DNA of 64,000 bases. Source: Leptolyngbyaceae cyanobacterium. Lineage in GTDB: Bacteria; Cyanobacteriota; Cyanobacteriia; Phormidesmidales; Phormidesmidaceae. The DNA is taken from positions 39,599-103,598 of the forward strand of contig JBHJHA010000015.1 in NCBI GenBank assembly GCA_050331235.1, given 5' to 3'. The translations under genes and the position numbers were made by a program. Numbering within the stretch: the first letter of the stretch is position 1; every line of letters begins with the position of its first letter. A model generated the notes under the pieces. The model was not told the origin of the DNA and ran no database searches. It saw nothing but the letters and a program-made list of their open reading frames with translations. This document shows positions 1 to 40,617 of the stretch, piece after piece.

Positions 1-518
1 CCTTTGTCTTCAAACATATCTAGGAGCCGCAGCACACCCAGGGGTAAGCTCTCGCCGTATAACACTTCCTGGCGATTGCCGATGACCGCCTCTGTACTGC
101 CGCCTCCGATGTCAAACACTAAGGCGGTGTCATCCATGAGCGAGATGGAGTTGCGTACAGCCAGAAAAATTAGGCGTGCTTCCTCTTTACCCGAGATAAT
201 CCTAGGCTCAAGCCCCGTCCGTTGGACTAACTCCGCTAAGAAGGCGTCACCGTTTTGAGCTTCGCGGATAGCGCTCGTAGCGGCGGTAATGACATCATCA
301 ACGCCAACTTGCTCAGCCAATTGCACGTAGCGATGAATGGTTTCGATGCCCGTTTGGAAGGCGCGATCGCTCAGCCGGTTGGTGGCAAAGACTCCAGCCC
401 CCAGCTTGATCATGGCCTTTTCGCGCTCGATCACCTTAAAGTTGCGCTGCGAAACGGCCTCCACGATGATCATGTGAATGGAGTTGGTGCCGATGTCGAT
501 CGCGGCCAGTTTCATCAT
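1..518 (-). CDS. ppx: Ppx/GppA family exopolyphosphatase (N-terminal part; runs off the window edge)
   Basis: Hand translation from ATG at 518: MMKLAAIDIGTNSIHMII...ATSAIREAQNG...IISGKEEARL...FDIGGGSTE...SLPLGVLRL, all hallmark Ppx/GppA (ASKHA) motifs. Absent from the ORF track because there is no stop in the window. Confidence 0.93.
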   Translation of the reverse strand, partial: MMKLAAIDIGTNSIHMIIVEAVSQRNFKVIEREKAMIKLGAGVFATNRLSDRAFQTGIETIHRYVQLAEQVGVDDVITAATSAIREAQNGDAFLAELVQRTGLEPRIISGKEEARLIFLAVRNSISLMDDTALVFDIGGGSTEAVIGNRQEVLYGESLPLGVLRLLDMFEDK

Positions 519-554: not shown

Positions 555-968
555 TTAGCGCTGCCAAATCCAGCCTACCAAGATCCCTAGAAAAGCTACC
601 GAGCCTAAAACTGCCAGAACAATGGAAACAACGAAAGAAGGTGAGCGGCGAGCCACGTAAATCAGATCGTTTCGCTGAATGCGCTGAAGCTGTTGCCGAT
701 GATCAAAAGCTGCGGCCAACATGGCAAAAGTGCCTAGGGCAATGAACGAAAGTCCGAGAATTCGACTCAGGCGAATCGGATTGCCGACACCCCCCAGGTT
801 TTGCTCTAAGACGGCTACGATGCGATCAATCCCTACGCCAAAGCTGATGAGGGACAGGCTTGTGCGAATCCAGGCCATCAACGTTCGTTCTTCGGCGGCG
901 CGGTTGCGTTCCTTCGCCAGCTCGGTGGCCGGATTAGGCGAGTTGGCGGGCTGGTTAGAGCTAGTCAT
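555..968 (-). CDS. DUF202 (YidH/Vtc1-like) small membrane protein
   Basis: ELAKERNRAAEERTLMAWIRTSLSLISFG motif followed by 3 hydrophobic helices. Confidence 0.88.
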   Translation of the reverse strand: MTSSNQPANSPNPATELAKERNRAAEERTLMAWIRTSLSLISFGVGIDRIVAVLEQNLGGVGNPIRLSRILGLSFIALGTFAMLAAAFDHRQQLQRIQRNDLIYVARRSPSFVVSIVLAVLGSVAFLGILVGWIWQR

Positions 969-1065: not shown

Positions 1066-1515
1066 ATGACGTTTGGCCAAAGTCATTTTGGAACTCCATC
1101 AGCCATGACTCCTCTCCAACCAGAACGGATTACCGGCCCCAATAACGAACTCGCCAAGGAACGCAATCGCGCCGCGGCGGAGCGGACCATGACCGCCTGG
1201 ATCCAAAATTGCTTAACTTTAATTGGCTTCGGTATTGCTGTGGACCAAATCAACCAGGCCCTCGATGCGCGATCAGCGGCCACACTGGTTGCCACAGGAC
1301 CCAGTGTGGCGCCGCTGATCGCGATTGGCTTTGTGGGCTTTGGAATGGCTTTATTGGTCATGGCTTGGCTGCAATATCGGTTAGAGATTCGCTCCATTGA
1401 ACGGGCAGATTATGTGCTGCTCTCGGTTAGTCAGCTAAATCAGATTGTCGGGTGGGCCATTGTTCTGTTTGGCGTTTTATCGGGCATTGCCTTGATTATC
1501 TTTGCTAGGGGCTAG
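1066..1515 (+). CDS. DUF202 (YidH/Vtc1-like) small membrane protein, inverted orientation
   Basis: ELAKERNRAAAERTMTAWIQNCLTLIGFG plus 3 TM segments; start could be 1105. Confidence 0.85.
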   Translation: MTFGQSHFGTPSAMTPLQPERITGPNNELAKERNRAAAERTMTAWIQNCLTLIGFGIAVDQINQALDARSAATLVATGPSVAPLIAIGFVGFGMALLVMAWLQYRLEIRSIERADYVLLSVSQLNQIVGWAIVLFGVLSGIALIIFARG

Positions 1516-1528
1516 GGCGGCGACCGGT

Positions 1529-1933
1529 TTAAGTTACTAACCGAAAGGTGATGAGCGCCACAATTACCAAGGCAATGACAAACAGTGCGATGGCTACTGT
1601 TTCCCCCAGGGGATAGCGCGGTGTGAACGCATAGTCTGACTGATTGAGGCGATGCAGTTCACCGCGGTAGTCGATGGCGGCGATGACCAATGCATAAACG
1701 CCTAAGCCAATCAGCACTAATCCTAAAATATGGGCAAATCGACTCGGATTAATCGCATCCCCAATGCTTTGGTACAGCAAACTCACCGTTTGATCAATCC
1801 CAAATCCGATGCCAATCAGGGTTAAGCTGGTGCGAATCCACGCCAAAAGGCTGCGATCGGCCGCAATACGGTTCCGCTCTTTAGCGAGTTCAAATTGCGT
1901 ATTGGGGGAGGGAGATGAGTCAGGGGAGGACAT
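1529..1933 (-). CDS. DUF202 (YidH/Vtc1-like) small membrane protein
   Basis: ELAKERNRIAADRSLLAWIRTSLTLIGIG plus 3 TM segments. Confidence 0.88.
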   Translation of the reverse strand: MSSPDSSPSPNTQFELAKERNRIAADRSLLAWIRTSLTLIGIGFGIDQTVSLLYQSIGDAINPSRFAHILGLVLIGLGVYALVIAAIDYRGELHRLNQSDYAFTPRYPLGETVAIALFVIALVIVALITFRLVT

Positions 1934-1955: not shown

Positions 1956-3425
1956 TTAGGTTGGAGTCGTAGCGGGCGTCGCCGTCGCCGCCGCCTGACT
2001 GGACTGCTGTTTGAGCTGTAGTTTGACCCAGGCGTTGTAGGGGGTGGCCACCACCGCTCCCACAATTAGATAAGTCACGATGGAGGGCACCGCTGCCGGC
2101 TGCTGGTTGGCGATCGCAATAAACAACGCTAACCCCGCATTACGAGCGATCGTCGCCGTAGCCACGGCGGCTCGGTCTTCGAGGTTGGGACCGCCGAGCA
2201 CATGACCGATGGCGAGACCAATCGCCACCACCCCGGCAAACGCAATGAGCGTCTTCAGGCTAAATTGAGGCACTAAGTTGATGCTGATGGCTACCAAAAA
2301 GAAGGCCAAGACCAAAAACATTGTGTTGGCTACAGTGATCATCAGCGTGGCAATTTCATCGGCAAAGTCAGCCGAGACCCGCCGGATCAAAATGCCGATG
2401 CCAAGGGGGAGCAACTGCACCGTGGCGATTTGCTTGGCCACCGTCAAAAATGGAATCTGCTCCTCGGCTTGGGGAAAGAGCAGCGCAAACGCTGCTAACA
2501 AGAGGGGGGTAATTACCACGGCCGATGTGGCCAGTAAAATTTGTAGGGCCGCGGCGGTGTTGACGCTGCCCCCCGCCATGTTGACCCGCTTAGTCAGCAG
2601 GGGAGCCGCCGGAGCCGCCGCAAGAATGACTAACGCGATGCTGGAGCGCGGCGATAGCTGAAACAGCCACAGGGAAATCGCAGCTGCCAGCGGAAACAAC
2701 ACCAGCACCGCCACGAGCGATCGCGCCAACAAATTGGGCTGTTGGAATAGGGCCAACAGGCGCTGGGGAGCAACGGCCACGCCAATCGCCAACATAATGA
2801 TGAAGACCACTAGCCCCGCCAAACTCTGGATCAACGGGCTGGTCACTGAGAAAATTTCGCCTAGCTTGATTTCCCCGGAAATAAGGGGCACAAACGCCGC
2901 TAATCCGATAAACAGCAGCACCACCCCCACTGTGAAGCCCAGGGATCCCCCAGGGGAATATTTATATTCCCGGGCTTCGATGCTGCGCAGGGTCGTCCAA
3001 TGGCTGATTAACGCCCCCACCAAAGCCACAATGCCCAAGCCGATGAGACTCAGCCCCAGCAAGCGCTCTTCTGACAGCTGATTGATGCCTGTGGGGGCCC
3101 CGGTTTTGTCCACGTACTTGAAAAATCGGTCAATGCCAAAGCCAAAGCTAATCAGCGATAGCGATGTGCGAATCCAGGCCATAAGGGTTCGTTCTTCGGC
3201 GGCGCGGGTGCGCTCGCGGGCAAGCTCAGTACGAATCTCGGCTAGGTCGGTGCGCTGTTCAGCCAGCCCCGTGCGATTGGTTGACATTGCTGTGCGCTGC
3301 TTGGCCAGGTCGGTGCGATCGCTGGCGAGGTGGGTTCTCACCATCGCCAGTTCCGTGTTGCTCATCCCCTCATAGGGGGAAGCCGGCGTCTCGTCAGAAT
3401 TAGCGGGGGGATTGGTGGCAGTCAT
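1956..3425 (-). CDS. DUF202 domain fused to bile acid:Na+ symporter (BASS/SBF) domain
   Basis: N-terminal RT heptad repeats and ERTLMAWIRTSL; C-terminal multi-TM domain with LAAAPAAP, QLLPLGIGILIRR, GHVLGG and ARNAGLAL motifs typical of BASS. Confidence 0.82.
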   Translation of the reverse strand: MTATNPPANSDETPASPYEGMSNTELAMVRTHLASDRTDLAKQRTAMSTNRTGLAEQRTDLAEIRTELARERTRAAEERTLMAWIRTSLSLISFGFGIDRFFKYVDKTGAPTGINQLSEERLLGLSLIGLGIVALVGALISHWTTLRSIEAREYKYSPGGSLGFTVGVVLLFIGLAAFVPLISGEIKLGEIFSVTSPLIQSLAGLVVFIIMLAIGVAVAPQRLLALFQQPNLLARSLVAVLVLFPLAAAISLWLFQLSPRSSIALVILAAAPAAPLLTKRVNMAGGSVNTAAALQILLATSAVVITPLLLAAFALLFPQAEEQIPFLTVAKQIATVQLLPLGIGILIRRVSADFADEIATLMITVANTMFLVLAFFLVAISINLVPQFSLKTLIAFAGVVAIGLAIGHVLGGPNLEDRAAVATATIARNAGLALFIAIANQQPAAVPSIVTYLIVGAVVATPYNAWVKLQLKQQSSQAAATATPATTPT

Positions 3426-3495: not shown

Positions 3496-4512
3496 TTAAC
3501 TCGAGACTGGCGCAATCAACCGAAAGCCAATATGGGTTGTTCCCGTGTCGGGGGCTTGGGATTCTCGGGCGGCTGGTCGGTAACGGCTGCAATAGTTTTT
3601 AGCGCAAAGATAGGACCCCCCCTTAATCACGTGTACGGCCCCGTCCGCTGGCTTTTTGGGGTCGTAGCTAATGGCCCGATCCGGGCCCGTGGGGTCGGTC
3701 TTGTTGGCTTTGCCGGTGTGCTTGACGGTAAACCAATCGGTGGTCAGCTCCCACACGTTGCCCGTCATGTCGTAAAGGCCATAGCCATTGGGCGGGTAAG
3801 ACATCACGGGAGCTGTCCCTAAGTAGCGATCTGCTTGGGTATTGAAAAAGGGGAACAGCCCCTGCCAAGTGTTGGCGCGGTCTGCCCGGTATTGCTCTCC
3901 CCAGGTATAGGTTTGCCCTGCTTGCCCGCCGCGGGCTGCATATTCCCATTGGGCTTCGGTGGGGAGCGATCGCCCCAGCCAGTCGGCGTAGGCCACGGCA
4001 TCTTCATAGGCAATGTGCACCACGGGGTGATCGGCCTTGCCCTCAAGGGTGCTGTCAGGCCCAAAAGGGTGTTGCCAGTCGGCACCGGGGGTCCAGTGCC
4101 ACCAGCTTAAGTAGGCCACCTGCTCAATGCCTGCCGCCGGTGGTTCAAAAACTAGTGAGCCCGGGATCCTTTGGGCGTCTGGCAAATCGGGAAACTGAGC
4201 TTTGGAGAGCGGTCGTTCGGCCACGGTAGTGTAGCCTGTCGCGGAGACAAAGGCGGCAAAGTCAGCGTTAGTGACCTCATGAGTTGCCATGCAAAAGCTG
4301 CTGACAGTGACATTGGCAGCGGTTTCTTCTTCCACAAAATCGGGATTGTCAGACCCCATGGTAAAGGTGCCCCCCGGAATCAACGCCATGCCATCGGGAC
4401 AGTGGAGCGCAGTCGGGGCCGCGATCGCAGGCGCTACCAACCCCAGCCAGAGACTCAGACATCCCCCTAGGAATAACCATTGGCATTGATCAAAAGCACG
4501 TTTCAAAGTCAC
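3496..4512 (-). CDS. Formylglycine-generating enzyme (sulfatase-modifying factor) with N-terminal signal peptide
   Basis: HPVVHI, LPTEAQWEYAARGG, NGYGLYDMTGNVWE, KGGSYLCAKNYCSRYRPAAR (both catalytic Cys), HIGFR. Confidence 0.92.
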   Translation of the reverse strand: MTLKRAFDQCQWLFLGGCLSLWLGLVAPAIAAPTALHCPDGMALIPGGTFTMGSDNPDFVEEETAANVTVSSFCMATHEVTNADFAAFVSATGYTTVAERPLSKAQFPDLPDAQRIPGSLVFEPPAAGIEQVAYLSWWHWTPGADWQHPFGPDSTLEGKADHPVVHIAYEDAVAYADWLGRSLPTEAQWEYAARGGQAGQTYTWGEQYRADRANTWQGLFPFFNTQADRYLGTAPVMSYPPNGYGLYDMTGNVWELTTDWFTVKHTGKANKTDPTGPDRAISYDPKKPADGAVHVIKGGSYLCAKNYCSRYRPAARESQAPDTGTTHIGFRLIAPVSS

Positions 4513-4656: not shown

Positions 4657-5622
4657 TTAGCGACGGCGCTTTAGGGTTTGTCGGGGCGTCTCGTCAAACA
4701 TCGCTGCATAGGCTTTGGCAAAGTGGCCGAGGCTGTGAAAGCCCCACAGGTGTGCAATATTTGTCACCGTCTCATAGTGCGGATCACCCCGTAATAAAGC
4801 ATTGCGGACCCCATTAAGTCGTTGGTATTTGAGATAAGTCATGGGGCCCATGCCAAAAATTTCTTGAAAGCCATAGCTGAGCGATCGCCGACTAGCGCAG
4901 ACCGCATCACTCAGGTCAGCCAAGGTAATGGGGCGATGCAGATTACTTCGCATGTAGTCTCTAGCAGATTCGATGATTTCGGCTCGACGTAAAGGCTTCA
5001 GGCATTTCGCTGAGGTTGATGTGTGTAGCGTATCCATGAGCAAGGGCAGCAAATCACCCCGAATTAGCCCCGTGGTTTCTGGCGACTGGGCATAGTGGGG
5101 CTGATGGTGCAACACAGCGACTAACTGCTGTAAATACTGGCGATAACCAATCATGGGATCGGTATTCAGCTCAACGATATTACGTCGCAGAAAGGCTGTA
5201 TCTAGCCCATCTTGACCCCTTCGCTCGATCAGACTGTGAAATAGAGTCTGATTAACCTGCACAACGACCAGTTCAAATCCTTGCTCGGCGGTGGCCACAT
5301 TGGTCTCGCGCTGTAGGTCAAAGCCAAAAATGCAGTTGGTCGATATCGGTGTCGCGTGGGCATGGTGTGAGCGGTGGTCTGGACCTAAGAAGGTGGCAAA
5401 GGGTAAGACCTCATTGGGTTTTTGACCCATAATCTCGACTCTACTGTTGAACTTAAGCCATAGGACTGAGCATTGCCGCAAATCAAACCGCATGACCTGC
5501 GCCGCAAAATTGTTCGGCTCAAGTTGCGTAAACACTAGTCCCCATTCTCGAAATGCCGCCGCACATTGATCAGCGTCGTGAAAGTCGAAGCTTTGCAAGG
5601 GGCTGTTCGAATGCATTGACAT
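4657..5622 (-). CDS. AraC family transcriptional regulator
   Basis: C-terminal double HTH: ITLADLSDAVCASRRSL...IAHLWGFHSLGHFAKAYAAMFDETPRQTL. Confidence 0.9.
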   Translation of the reverse strand: MSMHSNSPLQSFDFHDADQCAAAFREWGLVFTQLEPNNFAAQVMRFDLRQCSVLWLKFNSRVEIMGQKPNEVLPFATFLGPDHRSHHAHATPISTNCIFGFDLQRETNVATAEQGFELVVVQVNQTLFHSLIERRGQDGLDTAFLRRNIVELNTDPMIGYRQYLQQLVAVLHHQPHYAQSPETTGLIRGDLLPLLMDTLHTSTSAKCLKPLRRAEIIESARDYMRSNLHRPITLADLSDAVCASRRSLSYGFQEIFGMGPMTYLKYQRLNGVRNALLRGDPHYETVTNIAHLWGFHSLGHFAKAYAAMFDETPRQTLKRRR

Positions 5623-6035
5623 GCTCAGAAATTGCTCGGTGCGATGAACTGTAGGCTATCTTGTCCCAGACTTTCAACCGGATAAACAGATTCAGTTGGT
5701 CCGCGGCTCCACCTGAAGATAGGCTTCAGCAATATTGCACAAATCGTATATTGCCAAATCTAGCTAGACGCTGATAGCGATTCTAAAGCAGAGGCCCATG
5801 AGCGCAAAAACCCATTCTCAAGTTAGCCCCTGATTTTCGTTACATATTGATACACCCCGCAGTTCACTGATATTTGGCTGACTTCTACGTTCTTTTGCTA
5901 TGCGCAGCTCGCTTCCTCGCGTTCTTTAATCGCAGCTTAAAAGAGTCGCTTTAGCTTGAGAGCTTGAGATTGCCATATCTAGAAGACCTGGATTTTGGCT
6001 CTATCAAAATCCGTTGTTACACATGTGAAACGTTT

Positions 6036-7709
6036 ATGCTGCAGAGTTTTCATCATCCGAATCAGCTTCGGACCTGGTTGAAAAGGTCAGCTGCGATCGC
6101 CCTCACGGCTACCTTTCTCTTCGTGGGAAATTTGTCTTGGAGCAGTCCTGCGATCGCCGCGACGTATTCGTCCTATGGCGAGGCCAAAGCCGCGACCACC
6201 AGCACCTCTGAAAAACCCAATATCATCGTGATTTGGGGTGACGACATCGGGCAAAGTGACATCAGTGCCTATACAAAAGGTCTGATGGGCTTCCGGACTC
6301 CCAACATTGACCGCGTTGCTGATGAGGGGATGATCTTTACCGACTATTATGCAGAGCAGAGCTGTACAGCTGGTCGGTCAGCTTTCATTACTGGCCAGAC
6401 TGTATTTCGCACGGGCTTGAGCAAGGTCGGTCTCCCCGGCGCAGACTTGGGGCTCAGGGCCGAAGATCCCACCATTGCCGAACTGTTGAAAGAACAGGGC
6501 TACAACACCGCCCAGTTTGGTAAAAACCACTTGGGTGATAAGGATGAGTTTTTGCCGACAGCCCACGGCTTTGATGAGTTCTACGGCAACCTTTATCACT
6601 TAAACGCCGAAGAAGAGCCGGAACTACGGGACTATCCGCCTGCTGATCGATTCCCCAACTTTAAGAAAAAGTACGGCCCCCGGGGCGTGCTGCATAGCTT
6701 TGCCAAAGCGAATGGTAGTCAGGAAATCGAAGATACCGGCCCGCTCACCAAAAAGCGCATGGAAACTATCGACGACGATATTGCTGATCGCTCGGTGGAA
6801 TACATCAAACAACAAGCCTCGACAGGCGAGCCCTTCTTCCTGTGGACCAACTTTACCCACATGCACTTCCGCACTCACACTAAGCCCGAAAGCTTGGGGC
6901 AATCTGGTCTCTGGCAGTCTTTCTACCATGACACCATGATTGACCACGACAAAAACGTGGGTCAGGTGTTGGATGCGATTGATGAAGCCGGCATTGCTGA
7001 TAACACCATCGTGATTTACAGCACCGATAACGGCCCCCACATGAACTCTTGGCCGGATGCGGCAATGACCCCCTTCCGTAGTGAGAAGGATACGGGTTGG
7101 GAAGGCGCTTTCCGGGTGCCGGCGATGGTGCGCTGGCCGGGACACATCGAGGCTGGCAGTGTCTCTAACGGCATTGTCTCTCACCTTGACTGGATGCCGA
7201 CCTTTCTGGCGGCAGCAGGGGTTCCCGATGTGAAGGAAAAATTGCTGAATGGCTACAAAGCTGATGGCAAGCGCTTTAAGGTGCATCTGGATGGGTACAA
7301 CGTTCTGCCCTATCTAACCGGCGAAGAGAAAGAATCTCCCCGAGAATCGATCTTCTACTTCTCGGATGACGGCGATCTACTGGCCCTGCGGTATGACAAC
7401 TGGAAGATGCATTTTGCGCAGCAGCGGACCCCTGGCACTCTGGATATTTGGGCAGAGCCCTTTACTGAGCTCCGGGTACCTTTCATCTACAACCTGCGGA
7501 CGGATCCCTACGAGAAAGCTAGCATCACATCCAACACCTACTTTGATTGGATGATTGATCACGTTTACCTGTTGACTCCGGCGCAGCAATATGTGGGTGA
7601 ATTCCTGGAAACCTTCAAGGAATATCCGCCGCGCCAGAAAGCTGCTAGTTTCTCCGTTGATCAGGTCCTAGAGAAGCTCGAAAACGGTGCAGTTGGCGCT
7701 GCCTCGTAG
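6036..7709 (+). CDS. Exported Cys-type arylsulfatase
   Basis: KPNIIVIWGDDIG, SCTAGRSAFITG (CxxxR formylglycine motif), GKNHLG, STDNG; N-terminal signal peptide ending AIA; ATG at 6036 preferred. Confidence 0.92.
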   Translation: MLQSFHHPNQLRTWLKRSAAIALTATFLFVGNLSWSSPAIAATYSSYGEAKAATTSTSEKPNIIVIWGDDIGQSDISAYTKGLMGFRTPNIDRVADEGMIFTDYYAEQSCTAGRSAFITGQTVFRTGLSKVGLPGADLGLRAEDPTIAELLKEQGYNTAQFGKNHLGDKDEFLPTAHGFDEFYGNLYHLNAEEEPELRDYPPADRFPNFKKKYGPRGVLHSFAKANGSQEIEDTGPLTKKRMETIDDDIADRSVEYIKQQASTGEPFFLWTNFTHMHFRTHTKPESLGQSGLWQSFYHDTMIDHDKNVGQVLDAIDEAGIADNTIVIYSTDNGPHMNSWPDAAMTPFRSEKDTGWEGAFRVPAMVRWPGHIEAGSVSNGIVSHLDWMPTFLAAAGVPDVKEKLLNGYKADGKRFKVHLDGYNVLPYLTGEEKESPRESIFYFSDDGDLLALRYDNWKMHFAQQRTPGTLDIWAEPFTELRVPFIYNLRTDPYEKASITSNTYFDWMIDHVYLLTPAQQYVGEFLETFKEYPPRQKAASFSVDQVLEKLENGAVGAAS

Positions 7710-7890: not shown

Positions 7891-10350
7891 ATGAAATCTT
7901 CCGTTACTGCAACCATCATTCTGTTTTTCTCGGGGCTGGCAGCCCTGATTTATCAAACCATTTGGATTAAGCAACTGGCACTCGTGGTGGGTGTTGAGGT
8001 CTATGCTGTCACCATTGGCATCAGTGCATTCTTTACTGGGCTAGCACTGGGCAATTTATGGATTGGCCGCTGGACCGATCGCAGCAAAACTCCTTTGAGA
8101 CTCTATGCGGGTTTAGAGTTCGGCATTGCTATTACAGGAGTTGCCACCACCTGGACCTTGGCCCATAGCGATCGCCTTTTTGTCTCCCTGCAAGACACCG
8201 TCGGATTCTTGGCCTGGGGCTGGCCTTTGTTGTTGGTTGGTATTCCCGCAACGCTGATGGGGGGCACATTGGTAGCGTTGCTGAGAGCCTGTGAACCCGC
8301 CGAGGAGTTGGTCGGGCGCACCGCTGGGCTGCTCTATGCTGCCAATACCGCTGGCGCGATCGCCGGCACCTTAATCACCGCTTTTTACCTGATTGTCAAT
8401 TTAGGTATCCAACACACAGCCTGGGCTGCCGCCACTATTAATATCATTCTGGCGCTAGCTGCCCTTTCACTTCAGTCCGTGTGGCAACCCGCAGTACCTT
8501 CTCCCAATCTCTTGGCAAAACCTCAGCAGCGGGTGTCTTTGGCTTTAGTGCTGTACGCGATCGCTGGAGGACTGGCGCTGGGCTATGAGGTCATTTGGAC
8601 CCAAGCCATTGTGCAGTTTTTGAGCACGCGAGCCTACGCCTTCGCCGTCATCCTCGCGACCTATTTATTGGGCCTAACGTTGGGCAGCTGGGTGATCTCG
8701 TTTTGGAGCGATCGCCTGCGTTATCCCTGGGTGGTATTTGGCAGTTTGATTGCTAGTGCGGGCATCTTTGCCTTGGCTAGCTTTACCTTCACAGATATTT
8801 GGCTGCTCAAAGCTCAGCATGATTGGGGGCTATGGGCCTGGCAACTGACCCACAACCGCATGGCCATGAAACTCACCACTTTTGCTGTGGCCACAGGTGT
8901 CTTTGTCTTACTGCCCACCCTTTGCTTAGGCGCTGCCTATCCCCTGGCGATTCGGCTGGTAACCCGCACTCAGCATGTTGGAAAAGACACAGGCTTGCTG
9001 ACGGCGTTAAATACGCTGGGGGGTATCGTGGGGACGGGAGTGACCGGATTTCTCTTGGTGCCCCATTTAGGACTTGTCCACAGTATGGTCTTATTGGCAG
9101 GGGTCGCGACAATCGTAGGGGCGATCGCCGTTCTACAAGCAGCGACGGGACCTGCGAGCAAAGTCGCCATTGGTACCGCTGTAGTCGCGGTGATGGGGTT
9201 GGCAGTCATCACCCCAGCCGACAACTTTGCCCAAATGCTGACGATTCAACATCCCGGCAAATTGCTGTTTCATCAAGAAAGCGCCGGTAATACCGTTGCT
9301 GTGATTGAGCAGCCCACCTCCCAAGGCTCATTTCATCGACTGTATATTCAGGGTGTCTCCAATACGGGCGATGTCTTCCCTTCTCTGCGCTACATGCGAT
9401 TGCAGGCGCTATTGCCGTTGATCATTCATTCCGGGCAGCCTCGATCGGCCATGGTGGTGGGGCTGGGCTCTGGCATCACGAGTGGTTCGCTGTTGACCTA
9501 CCCTGACCTAGAGGAGCAAGTCACCTACGAGCTACTACCCCCGGTAATCGAAGCGGCTCAAACATTTGATGGCAATTTTGAGGTGACGCGCAATCCTCGG
9601 GCGACGATTGAAATTAGTGATGGTCGCCATGAGCTTTTGCGGACTCAAAAGCAATTTGATCTCATTACATTGGAGCCTCCCCCACCTTCTGCCTCTGGAG
9701 TCGTGAACTTGTACTCTCGTGACTTTTACGAACTGGCAAAATCGAAGCTAGCTCCCGATGGCTTATTTGCCCAATGGTGGCCACTAGCTACCCAAAATGA
9801 TGCTGATTCGCGATCGTTGGCACGCAGTATGCTCGATGCGTTTCCCTATGTCACGGTATGGAGTACCGAGTTTCACGAAATGATGCTGATCGGTTCCATG
9901 TGCCCTCTAGAGCTGCAGCCTGAGCAGATCCGCGAGCGGTTTGCCATTCCCTCGATTCAAACGGCGCTAACCGAAATTGGGATCCAATCACCTCAGGCCT
10001 TACTGGCCACCTATGTCACCGATCGCACTGGCCTGGAGAGCTATGTACAGGATGCGCCTGCGGTTACCGATGACCGCCCTTTGATCGAATATGCCGACTG
10101 GGTGCGCCCCGGAGAAATTGCTCGGGTATTGCCAGAAGTCATGAAAACAAATACTGTAGTGCCGCTACCCAAAGATGATCCTTGGCAGGCTGAAATTAAT
10201 CAGGAACGATACAACCTGTCACGTTTGTATAAAGCCCAATTGTCCTTATACGAAGGGGAAGACAATGACTGGTATTACCAAATTGTCGAAGTGTTGGAGG
10301 CCGACCCCGACAATGCTTACTATCGATGGATGTTCAAAGAAAGTACCTAA
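7891..10350 (+). CDS. Fused MFS-like membrane / spermidine synthase-like SAM-binding protein
   Basis: About 12 TM helices with SGLAALIYQ and LYAANTAGAIAG motifs; C-terminal VVGLGSGIT, DGRH, FDLITLEPPPP, NLYSRDFY. Confidence 0.85.
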   Translation: MKSSVTATIILFFSGLAALIYQTIWIKQLALVVGVEVYAVTIGISAFFTGLALGNLWIGRWTDRSKTPLRLYAGLEFGIAITGVATTWTLAHSDRLFVSLQDTVGFLAWGWPLLLVGIPATLMGGTLVALLRACEPAEELVGRTAGLLYAANTAGAIAGTLITAFYLIVNLGIQHTAWAAATINIILALAALSLQSVWQPAVPSPNLLAKPQQRVSLALVLYAIAGGLALGYEVIWTQAIVQFLSTRAYAFAVILATYLLGLTLGSWVISFWSDRLRYPWVVFGSLIASAGIFALASFTFTDIWLLKAQHDWGLWAWQLTHNRMAMKLTTFAVATGVFVLLPTLCLGAAYPLAIRLVTRTQHVGKDTGLLTALNTLGGIVGTGVTGFLLVPHLGLVHSMVLLAGVATIVGAIAVLQAATGPASKVAIGTAVVAVMGLAVITPADNFAQMLTIQHPGKLLFHQESAGNTVAVIEQPTSQGSFHRLYIQGVSNTGDVFPSLRYMRLQALLPLIIHSGQPRSAMVVGLGSGITSGSLLTYPDLEEQVTYELLPPVIEAAQTFDGNFEVTRNPRATIEISDGRHELLRTQKQFDLITLEPPPPSASGVVNLYSRDFYELAKSKLAPDGLFAQWWPLATQNDADSRSLARSMLDAFPYVTVWSTEFHEMMLIGSMCPLELQPEQIRERFAIPSIQTALTEIGIQSPQALLATYVTDRTGLESYVQDAPAVTDDRPLIEYADWVRPGEIARVLPEVMKTNTVVPLPKDDPWQAEINQERYNLSRLYKAQLSLYEGEDNDWYYQIVEVLEADPDNAYYRWMFKEST

Positions 10351-38553: not shown

Positions 38554-40617
38554 ATGGATATCGTTCAAGACCTGTTGTTTGATAATCCACTGGTGGCGTT
38601 CACGACGTTACTGCTGGTCAGTCTGACCCTGCCGCCACTCTTTGAGCGAATGCAGTTGCCTGGGCTCGTGGGGCTGCTGTTGGCGGGAGTCCTGCTAGGC
38701 TCCAACGGATTAGGGTTGCTGAATCCGGCCGGAGACGTTGAACAGTTGTTTTCTGATGTGGGCAAGGTCTATCTCATGTTCGTGGCAGCTTTGGAGATTG
38801 ACCCCCAGGAATTTGGCCGCAACCGCCGCCGCTCAATGCTGTTTGGAGGCTTGACGTTTGCGTTGCCTTTGGTGGGGGGGATTCTCCTCGGTCGCTGGGC
38901 CGGGCAGGGGTGGCTGGCAGCGGTGCTCATTGGGTCTCTGCTGTCTTCCCATACCTTGCTGGCATATCCCATTGTGATGCGGCTCGGCGTCGCCCGCGAT
39001 GAGTCCGTCACCGTCACCATCGGGGCCACGATTTTTACAGACATTGCAGCACTATTGGTGCTGGCGATCTGTGCCTCCGTTGCGGAGGGTGACTTTTCGG
39101 TGTGGTCGCTGGCCGGGCAATTAGCGACGCTAGGCCTGTATGCAGCGGCGGTTTTGTTTGGCTTAAACCGGGTTGGCAAGCTGTATTTTCAGCGCACAGG
39201 GGATGAGCAGAGCAATAAATTTTTGTTCATTCTGCTGGCGGTGTTTTTGGCGGCTGTGGGAGCGCAAATTATTCGAATTGATTAGGTAGTTGGGGCGTTT
39301 CTGGCGGGGCTGGCGGTGAATGATGTGGTGGGTGATGGCCCGGTGAAAGAGAAGGTTGAGTTTTTTGGCAGCGTTATTTTCATCCCGTTCTTCTTTGTCT
39401 GTATGGGGCTGCTATTGGATGTGCCGGTATTTTTGTCTGCCCTGACCGATCGCCTAGGGCTGACCCTCGGTATTGTCATGATGCTGCTGTTGACTAAGTT
39501 TCTGGCGGCGGCGATCGCAGGGCTTGGCTTTCGCTATAGCTGGATACAAATTCTCACGATGTGGTCACTTTCTTTGCCCCAGGTGGCGGCGACGTTAGCG
39601 GCTGCCTTGGTGGGATTGCAAGTAGGGCTGCTGACGGCACCGCTCTTTAATGCCGTCATTGTATTGATGCTGATAACGTCTCTGGTGGGCTCAATTGCCA
39701 CGAGTCGATTTGCCCGAGCGCTTCCTTTACCCACCTTAGTGGAGTCCCCCTCTGACCCTGAGGATTGGGCGGCTTGGCCCGCCACCGATTTGCCCTCGAC
39801 TGCTCAGTTTGCGGTGGTTGTCCCCGTTTCCAACCCTACTACGCAGCAATATCTGATCGAAATGGCAGCCCTGATTGCCCACCACGAAGCGGGATATATC
39901 GTACCACTGGCGATCGCACCAGCTCATATGCATATGGACGCCCCTCAATTGACAATCGCGCTGGAGCGCAATCGTGCTTTACTACAAACCGCTGAAGACC
40001 TAAGTCGCGCGCTCGGCACGCCAGCGATCGCTCAAAACCGCATCGATGACGATATTGCCGAGGCGATTAGCCGGACCGCCCGCGAACAGAATGCTCAACT
40101 GATTGTCATGGGTTGGAGTTCAACTGTGGGATTGCGAGCTCGCCTATTTGGCACCGTTATTGATAGTGTCTTTTGGGCGGCCCACTGCCCGGTGGCGGTG
40201 ACGCGATTACAAACGGCCCCGCGCGAGATGCGGCGCATTCTGATTCCCGTCAAAATCATGACGCCCCAAACTATACGCACTATTCGATTTGGTCAGATTC
40301 TGGCGGACACCCATGAGGCTAGCATCACGTTGCTGCATGTTAGCGATCGCACCGATGCAGCGGCTACCCGCCAGCGTTTCAAAGAAAAGCTTAAATCCGT
40401 TATAGCCGCTGGCCCAGCCGTCGACTGCACCATCAAAATGGTGCGCCACGACGATCCGGGGGCGGTGATTCTCAGTGCGGCCCGCCATGTTGATCTCGTC
40501 ATTCTGCGTTCCATGCGTCGCCGCACCGCGGGAGGTCTCGCCGTGAGTGATGTCACCCACCAAGTGTTGGATGGGTTGACCTGCTCGGTTGTCCTCTTTG
40601 GCGAGCGTCATTCCTAG
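38554..40617 (+). pseudogene. CPA2 cation:proton antiporter with C-terminal USP domains; in-frame TAG at 39283-39285
   Basis: LPGLVGLL, SHTLLAYPI, GATIFTD, then (stop)VVGAFLAGL, FIPFFF, PQVAATLAA and USP-like C-terminus; both ORF halves are in the same frame. Confidence 0.8.

Follow-up and report, generated by a model that had tools for sequence, protein, structure and literature searches.

A conserved arginine-threonine heptad ladder in a predicted DUF202-BASS fusion protein of a cyanobacterium

INTRODUCTION

DUF202 proteins are widespread in bacteria, where they have no established function. The window analysed here, a stretch of 64,000 nucleotides from a Leptolyngbyaceae cyanobacterium (contig JBHJHA010000015.1), encodes a 489-aa protein in which Arg-Thr recurs every seven residues ahead of the first transmembrane helix (TM1). 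This raises the question of whether such a ladder is a product of selection, which way its arginines face and what they might act upon. The original prediction, made from the sequence of the window, was that tandem amplification of a membrane-protein motif had produced a coiled coil that could, in an oligomer, be a cationic tunnel or rail guiding a polyanion such as polyphosphate (polyP) to a membrane pore.

RESULTS

Nine in-register heptads precede TM1

Arg-Thr occurs at residues 30, 37, 44, 51, 58, 65, 72, 79 and 86 of the 489-aa protein, in heptad register throughout. The eight places from 30 to 79 quoted in the original prediction were exact; its eight-fold repeat is real but one unit short, the actual count of nine including R86. 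Ahead of the series, residues 23-29 (NTELAMV) form a cap heptad that lacks Arg. The ladder is unique in the genome, as only one of 39,582 six-frame ORFs had at least four RT in heptad register. When residues 1-110 were shuffled 100,000 times, the longest RT run was 3 (reached 26 times), and 4 was never reached. The ladder is not a chance arrangement. Its features and those of neighbouring genes are collected in Table 1, in which the six extra heptads correspond to ~6 nm of helix, reckoned at 1.5 Å per residue.

Table 1. Features of the ladder locus (positions in the window)
Feature	Position	Strand	Basis
Short DUF202 paralog 3 (137 aa), without ladder	555..968	-	ORF list, Pfam, genome DUF202 search
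Short DUF202 paralog 2 (149 aa), opposite strand, without ladder	1066..1515	+	ORF list, Pfam, genome DUF202 search
Short DUF202 paralog 1 (134 aa), without ladder	1529..1933	-	ORF list, Pfam, genome DUF202 search
489-aa gene: Arg ladder, DUF202 (3 TM) and BASS/SBF carrier domain	1956..3425	-	ORF list, Pfam, AlphaFold, Foldseek to ASBT/NTCP
SBF/BASS Pfam match, residues 205-384	2274..2813	-	Pfam, E 4.4e-16
DUF202 Pfam match, residues 72-147	2985..3212	-	Pfam, E 2.2e-17
Three core DUF202 heptads (R72, R79, R86)	3150..3212	-	Sequence; Vtc1 alignment
Six extra heptads R-T-x-[LM]-[AS]-x-x (residues 30-71), absent from short paralogs	3213..3338	-	Sequence, homologue comparison
Cap heptad NTELAMV (residues 23-29); predicted start of long helix, Arg-less motif copy	3339..3359	-	Sequence, AlphaFold, homologue comparison
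FGE-sulfatase (sulfatase-modifying factor-like) gene	3496..4512	-	Pfam; recurs in 21/40 loci
AraC-family regulator	4657..5622	-	Pfam
Sulfatase-family gene	5964..7709	+	Pfam and further profile search; recurs in 22/40 loci

Compared with one another, the ladder units share 6-16 of 21 bases, and the array was not reported by Tandem Repeats Finder; the units therefore appear to be old, with no fresh DNA duplication. A recent DNA tandem repeat or an assembly artefact was considered and rejected in view of the diverged units, the negative Tandem Repeats Finder result, the occurrence of the ladder in homologues and the excess of silent changes described below.

Residues 72-147 scored 63.7 bits against the DUF202/YidH profile PF02656 (gathering cut-off 23.4), and by this profile match the ladder-bearing protein is assigned to DUF202. 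The protein has the ERT..W motif, and R72, R79, A83 and W84 were invariant across 84 sequences.

The ladder unit is found in short DUF202 proteins

The genome contains exactly four DUF202 matches, all within this array. The three short paralogs had been predicted to keep only the last two units. The R72 and R79 units were indeed present in all three, but R86 was retained too in two of them. Paralog 2, which has no R86 equivalent, is inverted, and an inverted DUF202 member recurs in same-genus relatives. All three short paralogs carry an Arg-less cap heptad ending ELAKE. More widely among short copies, the heptad before the R72 equivalent reads x[TN]ELA[KR]E, with E and L in 77/77. By this comparison, the ladder is the x[TN]ELA[KR]E heptad copied with Arg at the first position. 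Tandem amplification, as originally proposed, is thus upheld at the level of whole heptads, while the amplified unit is x[TN]ELA[KR]E plus Arg and not ERT as such.

The ladder is conserved and varies in length by whole heptads

A sequence search with residues 20-190 found 149 relatives of similar length. The best 120 of these 149 were nearly all DUF202-BASS fusions, and every organism-named one was cyanobacterial. An anchor motif was present in 119 of the 120 listed relatives, and the uninterrupted Arg count ranged from 2 to 11. The comparison of repeat number among homologues that the original prediction had called for yielded variation in whole heptads. The ladder consensus in the cyanobacterial fusions was R-T-x-[LM]-[AS]-x-x. 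The cap heptad was detected in 100 relatives and stood in register in 98 of them. Taken from these alignments, copy number varies by whole heptads and appears to be under purifying selection.

Conservation was quoted from 524 register-defined heptads only, as the 100% Arg found in Arg-defined ladders is circular: R at 99.0%, T/N at 98.8% (T 93%, N 6%), L/M at 96% (L 73%, M 23%) and A/S at 99.4% (A 87%, S 13%). Position 3 was mostly D/E/G, and positions 6 and 7 were variable. Among 492 heptads from 92 distinct ladders, position 1 held 489 Arg and no Lys, although Lys was common at positions 6 and 7. Silent and amino-acid changes were then counted in equal-length ladder pairs (70 pairs from 32 loci, not independent of one another). 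Thr codons showed 285 silent vs 24 amino-acid changes and Ala/Ser codons 230 vs 74, whereas the outer positions showed ~100 silent vs ~200 amino-acid changes. The absence of any amino-acid change in the Arg column is circular, since those ladders were defined by Arg.

Unit number changed at least 24 times on a quick tree of 59 of the 112 full-length proteins, built without the ladder residues, and 4 of 27 loci had near-identical neighbouring units that agreed at 19-20 of 21 bases. From these two observations, ladder expansion continues. In one lineage the ladder has eroded while the gene was kept: 14 of 119 proteins had only two Arg, and these clustered on the tree. Members of this lineage (P0083-P0097, P0107, P0111) have lost Arg from the distal heptads and gained Pro or Phe, with the rest of the protein intact. 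The lineage is a natural ladder-loss control. Because the ladder was lost there and changes length often, it is neither essential nor a fixed ruler.

A full HMMER search with residues 23-97 (the ladder and the start of TM1) returned 1,158 clusters at E 0.001. The best 150 matches included 143 new proteins, of which 115 had a DUF202 core, 122 had at least four in-register Arg and 107 had both. Among these best 150 matches, ladders on DUF202 reached 20 units, and some chains carried several ladders of similar length, three in nine proteins and two in two. An MshEN domain was found in all three of the three-ladder proteins tested. Four long proteins (P0278, P0324, P0347 and P0251) bore Arg heptad ladders of another type, 35 units long in P0347, with no DUF202 core detected. 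A description of the ladder was not found in the mostly open-access literature covered on DUF202, yidH, bacterial polyP, the yidJ/yidK sulfatase region and Arg coiled coils, and the ladder is apparently unpublished.

Modelling favours a continuous helix with inward-facing arginines

AlphaFold2 predicted helices at residues 23-108, 117-150 and 162-183 of the DUF202 part. The first of these is a single helix running from residue 23 to 107-108 and into TM1, with block pLDDT of 77-92 over the ladder and TM1. This model agrees with the original view that the ladder helix extends TM1, and in heptad register a helical wheel stacks the arginines on one face, again as foreseen. The ladder would lie on the cytoplasmic side, judging from the positive-inside rule and VTC topology; the charge bias of the loops fits this placement.

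The original prediction held that neutralisation by intrahelical salt bridges would count against it. We reject such neutralisation, as the i±3/4 neighbours of each ladder Arg are Leu/Met and Ala/Ser, never acidic. The supposed cationic character fared less simply. An Arg column does occupy one face, but residues 23-85 hold 11 basic and 10 acidic residues, so the segment is net neutral, with the acids on the outer face. When Arg itself is left out, the hydrophobic moment of the remaining six wheel positions is directed at Arg (0 degrees), and that of the acids is directed away (-153 degrees).

With Ala taken as a, the conserved set is Leu at g, Ala at a, Arg at d and Thr at e, four contiguous wheel positions, with polar or charged residues at b, c and f. 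According to a study of helical barrels (10.1101/2024.09.25.614870), those with at least five helices use g-a-d-e as their interface set. The ladder shows this conserved face in a strict heptad with polar b, c and f. In a toy Crick model (an idealised backbone with seven data points and assumed radii), conservation fitted burial best with Arg ~30 degrees from the axis at every oligomer number. The correlation was 0.81 for two helices and 0.89-0.93 for three to seven, compared with at most 0.46 when Arg faced outward. The fit peaked at five helices (r 0.93), with four, six and seven within 0.03, so that it does not fix the oligomer number. From this fit, the wheel geometry and the register with the Vtc1 pore rings (a weak alignment, described below), the arginines are likely to face inward. 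As a whole, the inward-Arg geometry is better supported than any cargo, because it is shared by three of the explanations weighed below.

The fused carrier domain lacks the expected sodium-site residues

The BASS domain scored 59.6 bits in Pfam (cut-off 24.3) and matched ASBT/NTCP in Foldseek at E 1e-9. When its profile was compared with the solved homologue 28sv, SN was replaced by LL, Glu by Ala and Gln by Arg, so that the motif (SN; E..Q N) was absent. The SN, Glu and Gln positions of the homologue are presumably its sodium ligands. The residues concerned fall at 276-280 and 422-429 (window 1956-2813, minus strand), where R428 was invariant in 98 sequences. Judged from these substitutions, the domain may be a sodium-independent anion carrier. 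Two loci encode ladder DUF202 proteins with no BASS domain in the locus (L068:3918-4604, 10 Arg; L069:7971-8585, 7 Arg).

One ladder gene per locus, beside sulfatase genes

Of 61 genomes searched, 9 contained the long form, and all of these had at least three further DUF202 matches. Forty loci were compared: the long form was present in 39, and in the fortieth, which is deltaproteobacterial, DUF202 and BASS are separate genes. Four DUF202 genes were counted in 27 of the 40. Exactly one ladder-bearing DUF202 gene was present in 37 of the 39 loci and two in none, with 20 of 135 copies unparsed. With only one ladder gene per locus, a closed tube would need the ladder protein to self-oligomerise. 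In a VTC-like mixed pentamer, no more than one or two helices would bear the ladder, too few to close a tube.

A sulfatase or FGE gene lay within 8 kb in 30 of the 40 loci, a count that overstates independence because the loci are related, compared with 1 of 35 loci whose DUF202 genes were all short. Contig ends truncated many loci; among those of at least 15 kb, the figure was 17/20. Other recurrent neighbours were an MFS transporter (20/40), UPF0114 (15) and DUF1622 (14). In the window itself, a fused MFS/spermidine-synthase-like gene lies directly 3' of the sulfatase gene (7891-10350, plus strand). In the deltaproteobacterial locus (L074:7968-9137), a short DUF202 gene is directly 5' of a separate BASS match, with a sulfatase and a SulP sulfate permease nearby; this is an unfused form of the DUF202-BASS module. 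In Escherichia coli K-12, the only two DUF202 genes, yidG and yidH, lie in the yidG-yidL region (L106:4609-10177), where their neighbours include genes for a sulfatase, a sodium:solute symporter and an AraC regulator. The yidGH context thus parallels the cyanobacterial locus, with the same kinds of gene.

For polyP, the cargo originally proposed, the search went the other way. The VTC polymerase domain PF09359 was not found in the 61 genomes searched (a control matched in 3/14, and the window's own genome is 95.5% complete), and Pfam gave no VTC (TTM) polymerase domain in the 489-aa protein. A second ppx/gppA copy (521 aa; window 1-518, minus strand; contig 38554-40116) does follow the last DUF202 gene on the same strand, starting 37 bases beyond it. 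A ppx neighbour was present in 0 of 75 related loci, with the window's own locus detected as a positive; ppx was located elsewhere in four relatives, and in a fifth none was found. The ppx neighbour was for these reasons rejected as evidence for polyP. No polyP genes were among the recurrent neighbours scanned. Judged by gene context, the cargo is most likely a small oxyanion belonging to the sulfatase module, and not polyP.

Searches link the DUF202 domain weakly to yeast VTC

When the DUF202 profile was searched against the PDB, the four best matches were all Vtc1, and weak (E 0.05-0.15). E78-R79-T80 fell on E30-R31-T32, with R79 on Vtc1 R31 and thereby R72, seven residues earlier, on K24. 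A PDB sequence search with the single DUF202 domain gave no matches at E 10. In a fold search with the DUF202 model, VTC chains took ranks 2, 4 and 7 (E 0.38-0.43), with no match at E 0.001. A second fold search placed 9umg_F (Z 9.0, rmsd 3.0, 100 aligned) at rank 32 among generic helical bundles. The fold searches, run on a predicted model, neither point to VTC specifically nor count against it. ESM Atlas gave no structure match, and everything it returned, at 0.80-0.82, was a DUF202 cluster, which is no more than a lead.

DISCUSSION

The ladder is real and conserved, and it would be structurally unusual if the proposed geometry holds. What it does is a matter for weighing. Our leading reading, tentative and at a little under an even chance, is that the ladder protein self-oligomerises into an Arg-lined, anion-filled barrel that extends the TM1 ring and gathers or filters oxyanions of the sulfatase module. 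The nine heptads repeat in tandem a motif from the first helix of a DUF202 (VTC-type) membrane module and likely lengthen the TM1 helix by ~6-9 nm into the cytoplasm, six heptads (~6 nm) beyond the short paralogs. Several copies, probably five, would pack as a helical barrel with Arg toward the axis. Leu/Met (g) and Thr (e) would form the seams between helices and Ala/Ser (a) would leave space in the lumen for Arg (d), with the variable, acidic b, c and f positions facing solvent. Such an Arg lumen would need anions to fold, giving an anion-filled antechamber that gathers or filters oxyanions at the pore mouth. Its cargo might be sulfate, phosphate or a small molecule bearing either group, handled by the sulfatase module. 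Chains that carry two or three ladders of similar length speak in favour of this reading, as does the sulfatase context. The weak points of this explanation are the single ladder per four-gene set and the loss of the ladder in one lineage. A bolder version, possible but doubtful, takes the ladder as a natural α-helical barrel with Arg at every core d position, a cationic nanotube whose length is tuned by tandem copying of a VTC-type pore heptad and which conducts or stores oxyanions; bacterial DUF202 proteins would then be sulfate/phosphate-type anion channels of sulfatase modules.

The same geometry evidence would serve an anion-stapled assembly stalk or sensor, in which Arg again faces inward but the anions are static or regulatory and nothing is conducted along the ladder. 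Such a stalk might zip carrier-fused subunits together, sort them from the short paralogs, or shut the pore until oxyanion levels change. Free variation in length and loss in one lineage suit a stabiliser better than a required conduit, and the restriction of the ladder to one paralog also favours it. An ordinary hydrophobic core would be cheaper, however, and the strict use of Arg over Lys, together with the register with the VTC pore rings, points to a role in a pore lumen; we consider the stalk unlikely, though less so than the other rivals. The remaining proposal with inward arginines is the original one, an Arg-lined tube that threads a polyP chain to a VTC-like pore. It draws on the fact that VTC subunits, whose equivalent rings are needed for polyP translocation, are the only sequence relatives with a solved structure, and on the ppx/gppA gene close behind the array. 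Against this stand the missing PF09359, the lack of a ppx link at related loci, with ppx elsewhere in four relatives and the copy in the window a second one, and the lack of polyP genes among the recurrent neighbours scanned. We regard a polyP rail as improbable.

A lower-order arrangement would dispense with the tube. In a mixed pentamer of the four DUF202 proteins (2:1:1:1, for example), one or two ladders might pair as a coiled coil or bind an acidic partner as a docking rod, with Arg snorkelling out to a neighbour's Glu. The company of four DUF202 genes in most loci, the further DUF202 matches in 9/9 long-form genomes and the heteropentameric make-up of VTC described below all speak for it, as does Asp/Glu at position 7 in 40% of heptads. 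Yet the other 60% have no acid there, near-invariant small residues and flanking Thr would be superfluous in a dimer, the conservation fit was lowest for two helices, and no acidic partner gene recurred among the neighbours; the chance that this arrangement is correct seems small. That the ladder is a tolerated slippage product without function is very improbable. Recent duplication is evident from the near-identical units in some loci, and erosion has occurred, but the kept register and the excess of silent changes at Thr and Ala/Ser codons (in non-independent pairs) appear largely to refute this explanation, and the motif is also present in many distant DUF202 clusters.

The self-assembled, oxyanion-gathering barrel that we favour would have consequences beyond this locus. 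An anion-dependent barrel with Arg inside would be an unusual natural type of coiled coil, useful to designers of charged nanopores, and would reveal the cargo of bacterial VTC-pore relatives that lack the polyP polymerase. The ladder is a short test object that can be synthesized as a peptide of 40-60 residues. The sulfatase context is common to cyanobacteria and E. coli, so that the question of cargo can be put to a direct test in E. coli K-12.

Several known systems resemble parts of this protein. The C-terminal domain shares its Pfam SBF match and fold with the BASS/SLC10 carriers ASBT and NTCP, but scores 49.5 vs 326 bits, far under the NCBIfam bass cut-off, and differs in the motif residues; the ladder is independent of the fusion, as the L068 and L069 loci illustrate. 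E. coli YidH/YidG exceed the PF02656 cut-off and share the tandem paralogs and the sulfatase, sodium symporter and AraC context. YidH keeps the register with three Arg (13, 20 and 27), but has no long ladder and no carrier fusion. YidH is without established function: in the reports on it, it was a candidate from a D-alanine export screen that a transport assay did not confirm, and it had an oxidative-stress phenotype. Designed α-helical barrels of the CC-Hex2 type likewise conserve four adjacent wheel positions and have polar or charged residues at b, c and f. They differ in carrying Leu and Ile at a and d, where the putative Ala/Ser and Arg here would give a charged lumen.

The closest parallel is the membrane domain of yeast VTC (Vtc1, Vtc3, Vtc4; PDB 7ytj, 8i6v, 9umg), a DUF202 domain with three helices per subunit; a table in PMC4400040 lists DUF202 in Vtc4. 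In the structural study (10.1101/2023.01.27.525886, PMC9911596), VTC is a 3:1:1 heteropentamer with a pore lined by five TM1 helices; the two basic rings of this pore, made up of K24 and R31, are needed for polyP translocation, and phosphate ions occupy the pore entrance. VTC has two such rings compared with nine in-register Arg here, and the bacterial protein, known here from its sequence, is fused to BASS. Because the polymerase is missing from the 61 genomes searched, the cyanobacterial assembly would not be a VTC complex. The two nevertheless share the ERT motif at E30-R31-T32, the Vtc1 stretch R-T-x-L-S equals one unit of the ladder motif, and the pore-lining basic residues K24 and R31 are seven apart, which matches the ladder spacing. 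Since the Arg column is in register with K24/R31, the ladder would continue the pore-lining stripe and, by analogy, may work like the vestibule of the VTC pore.
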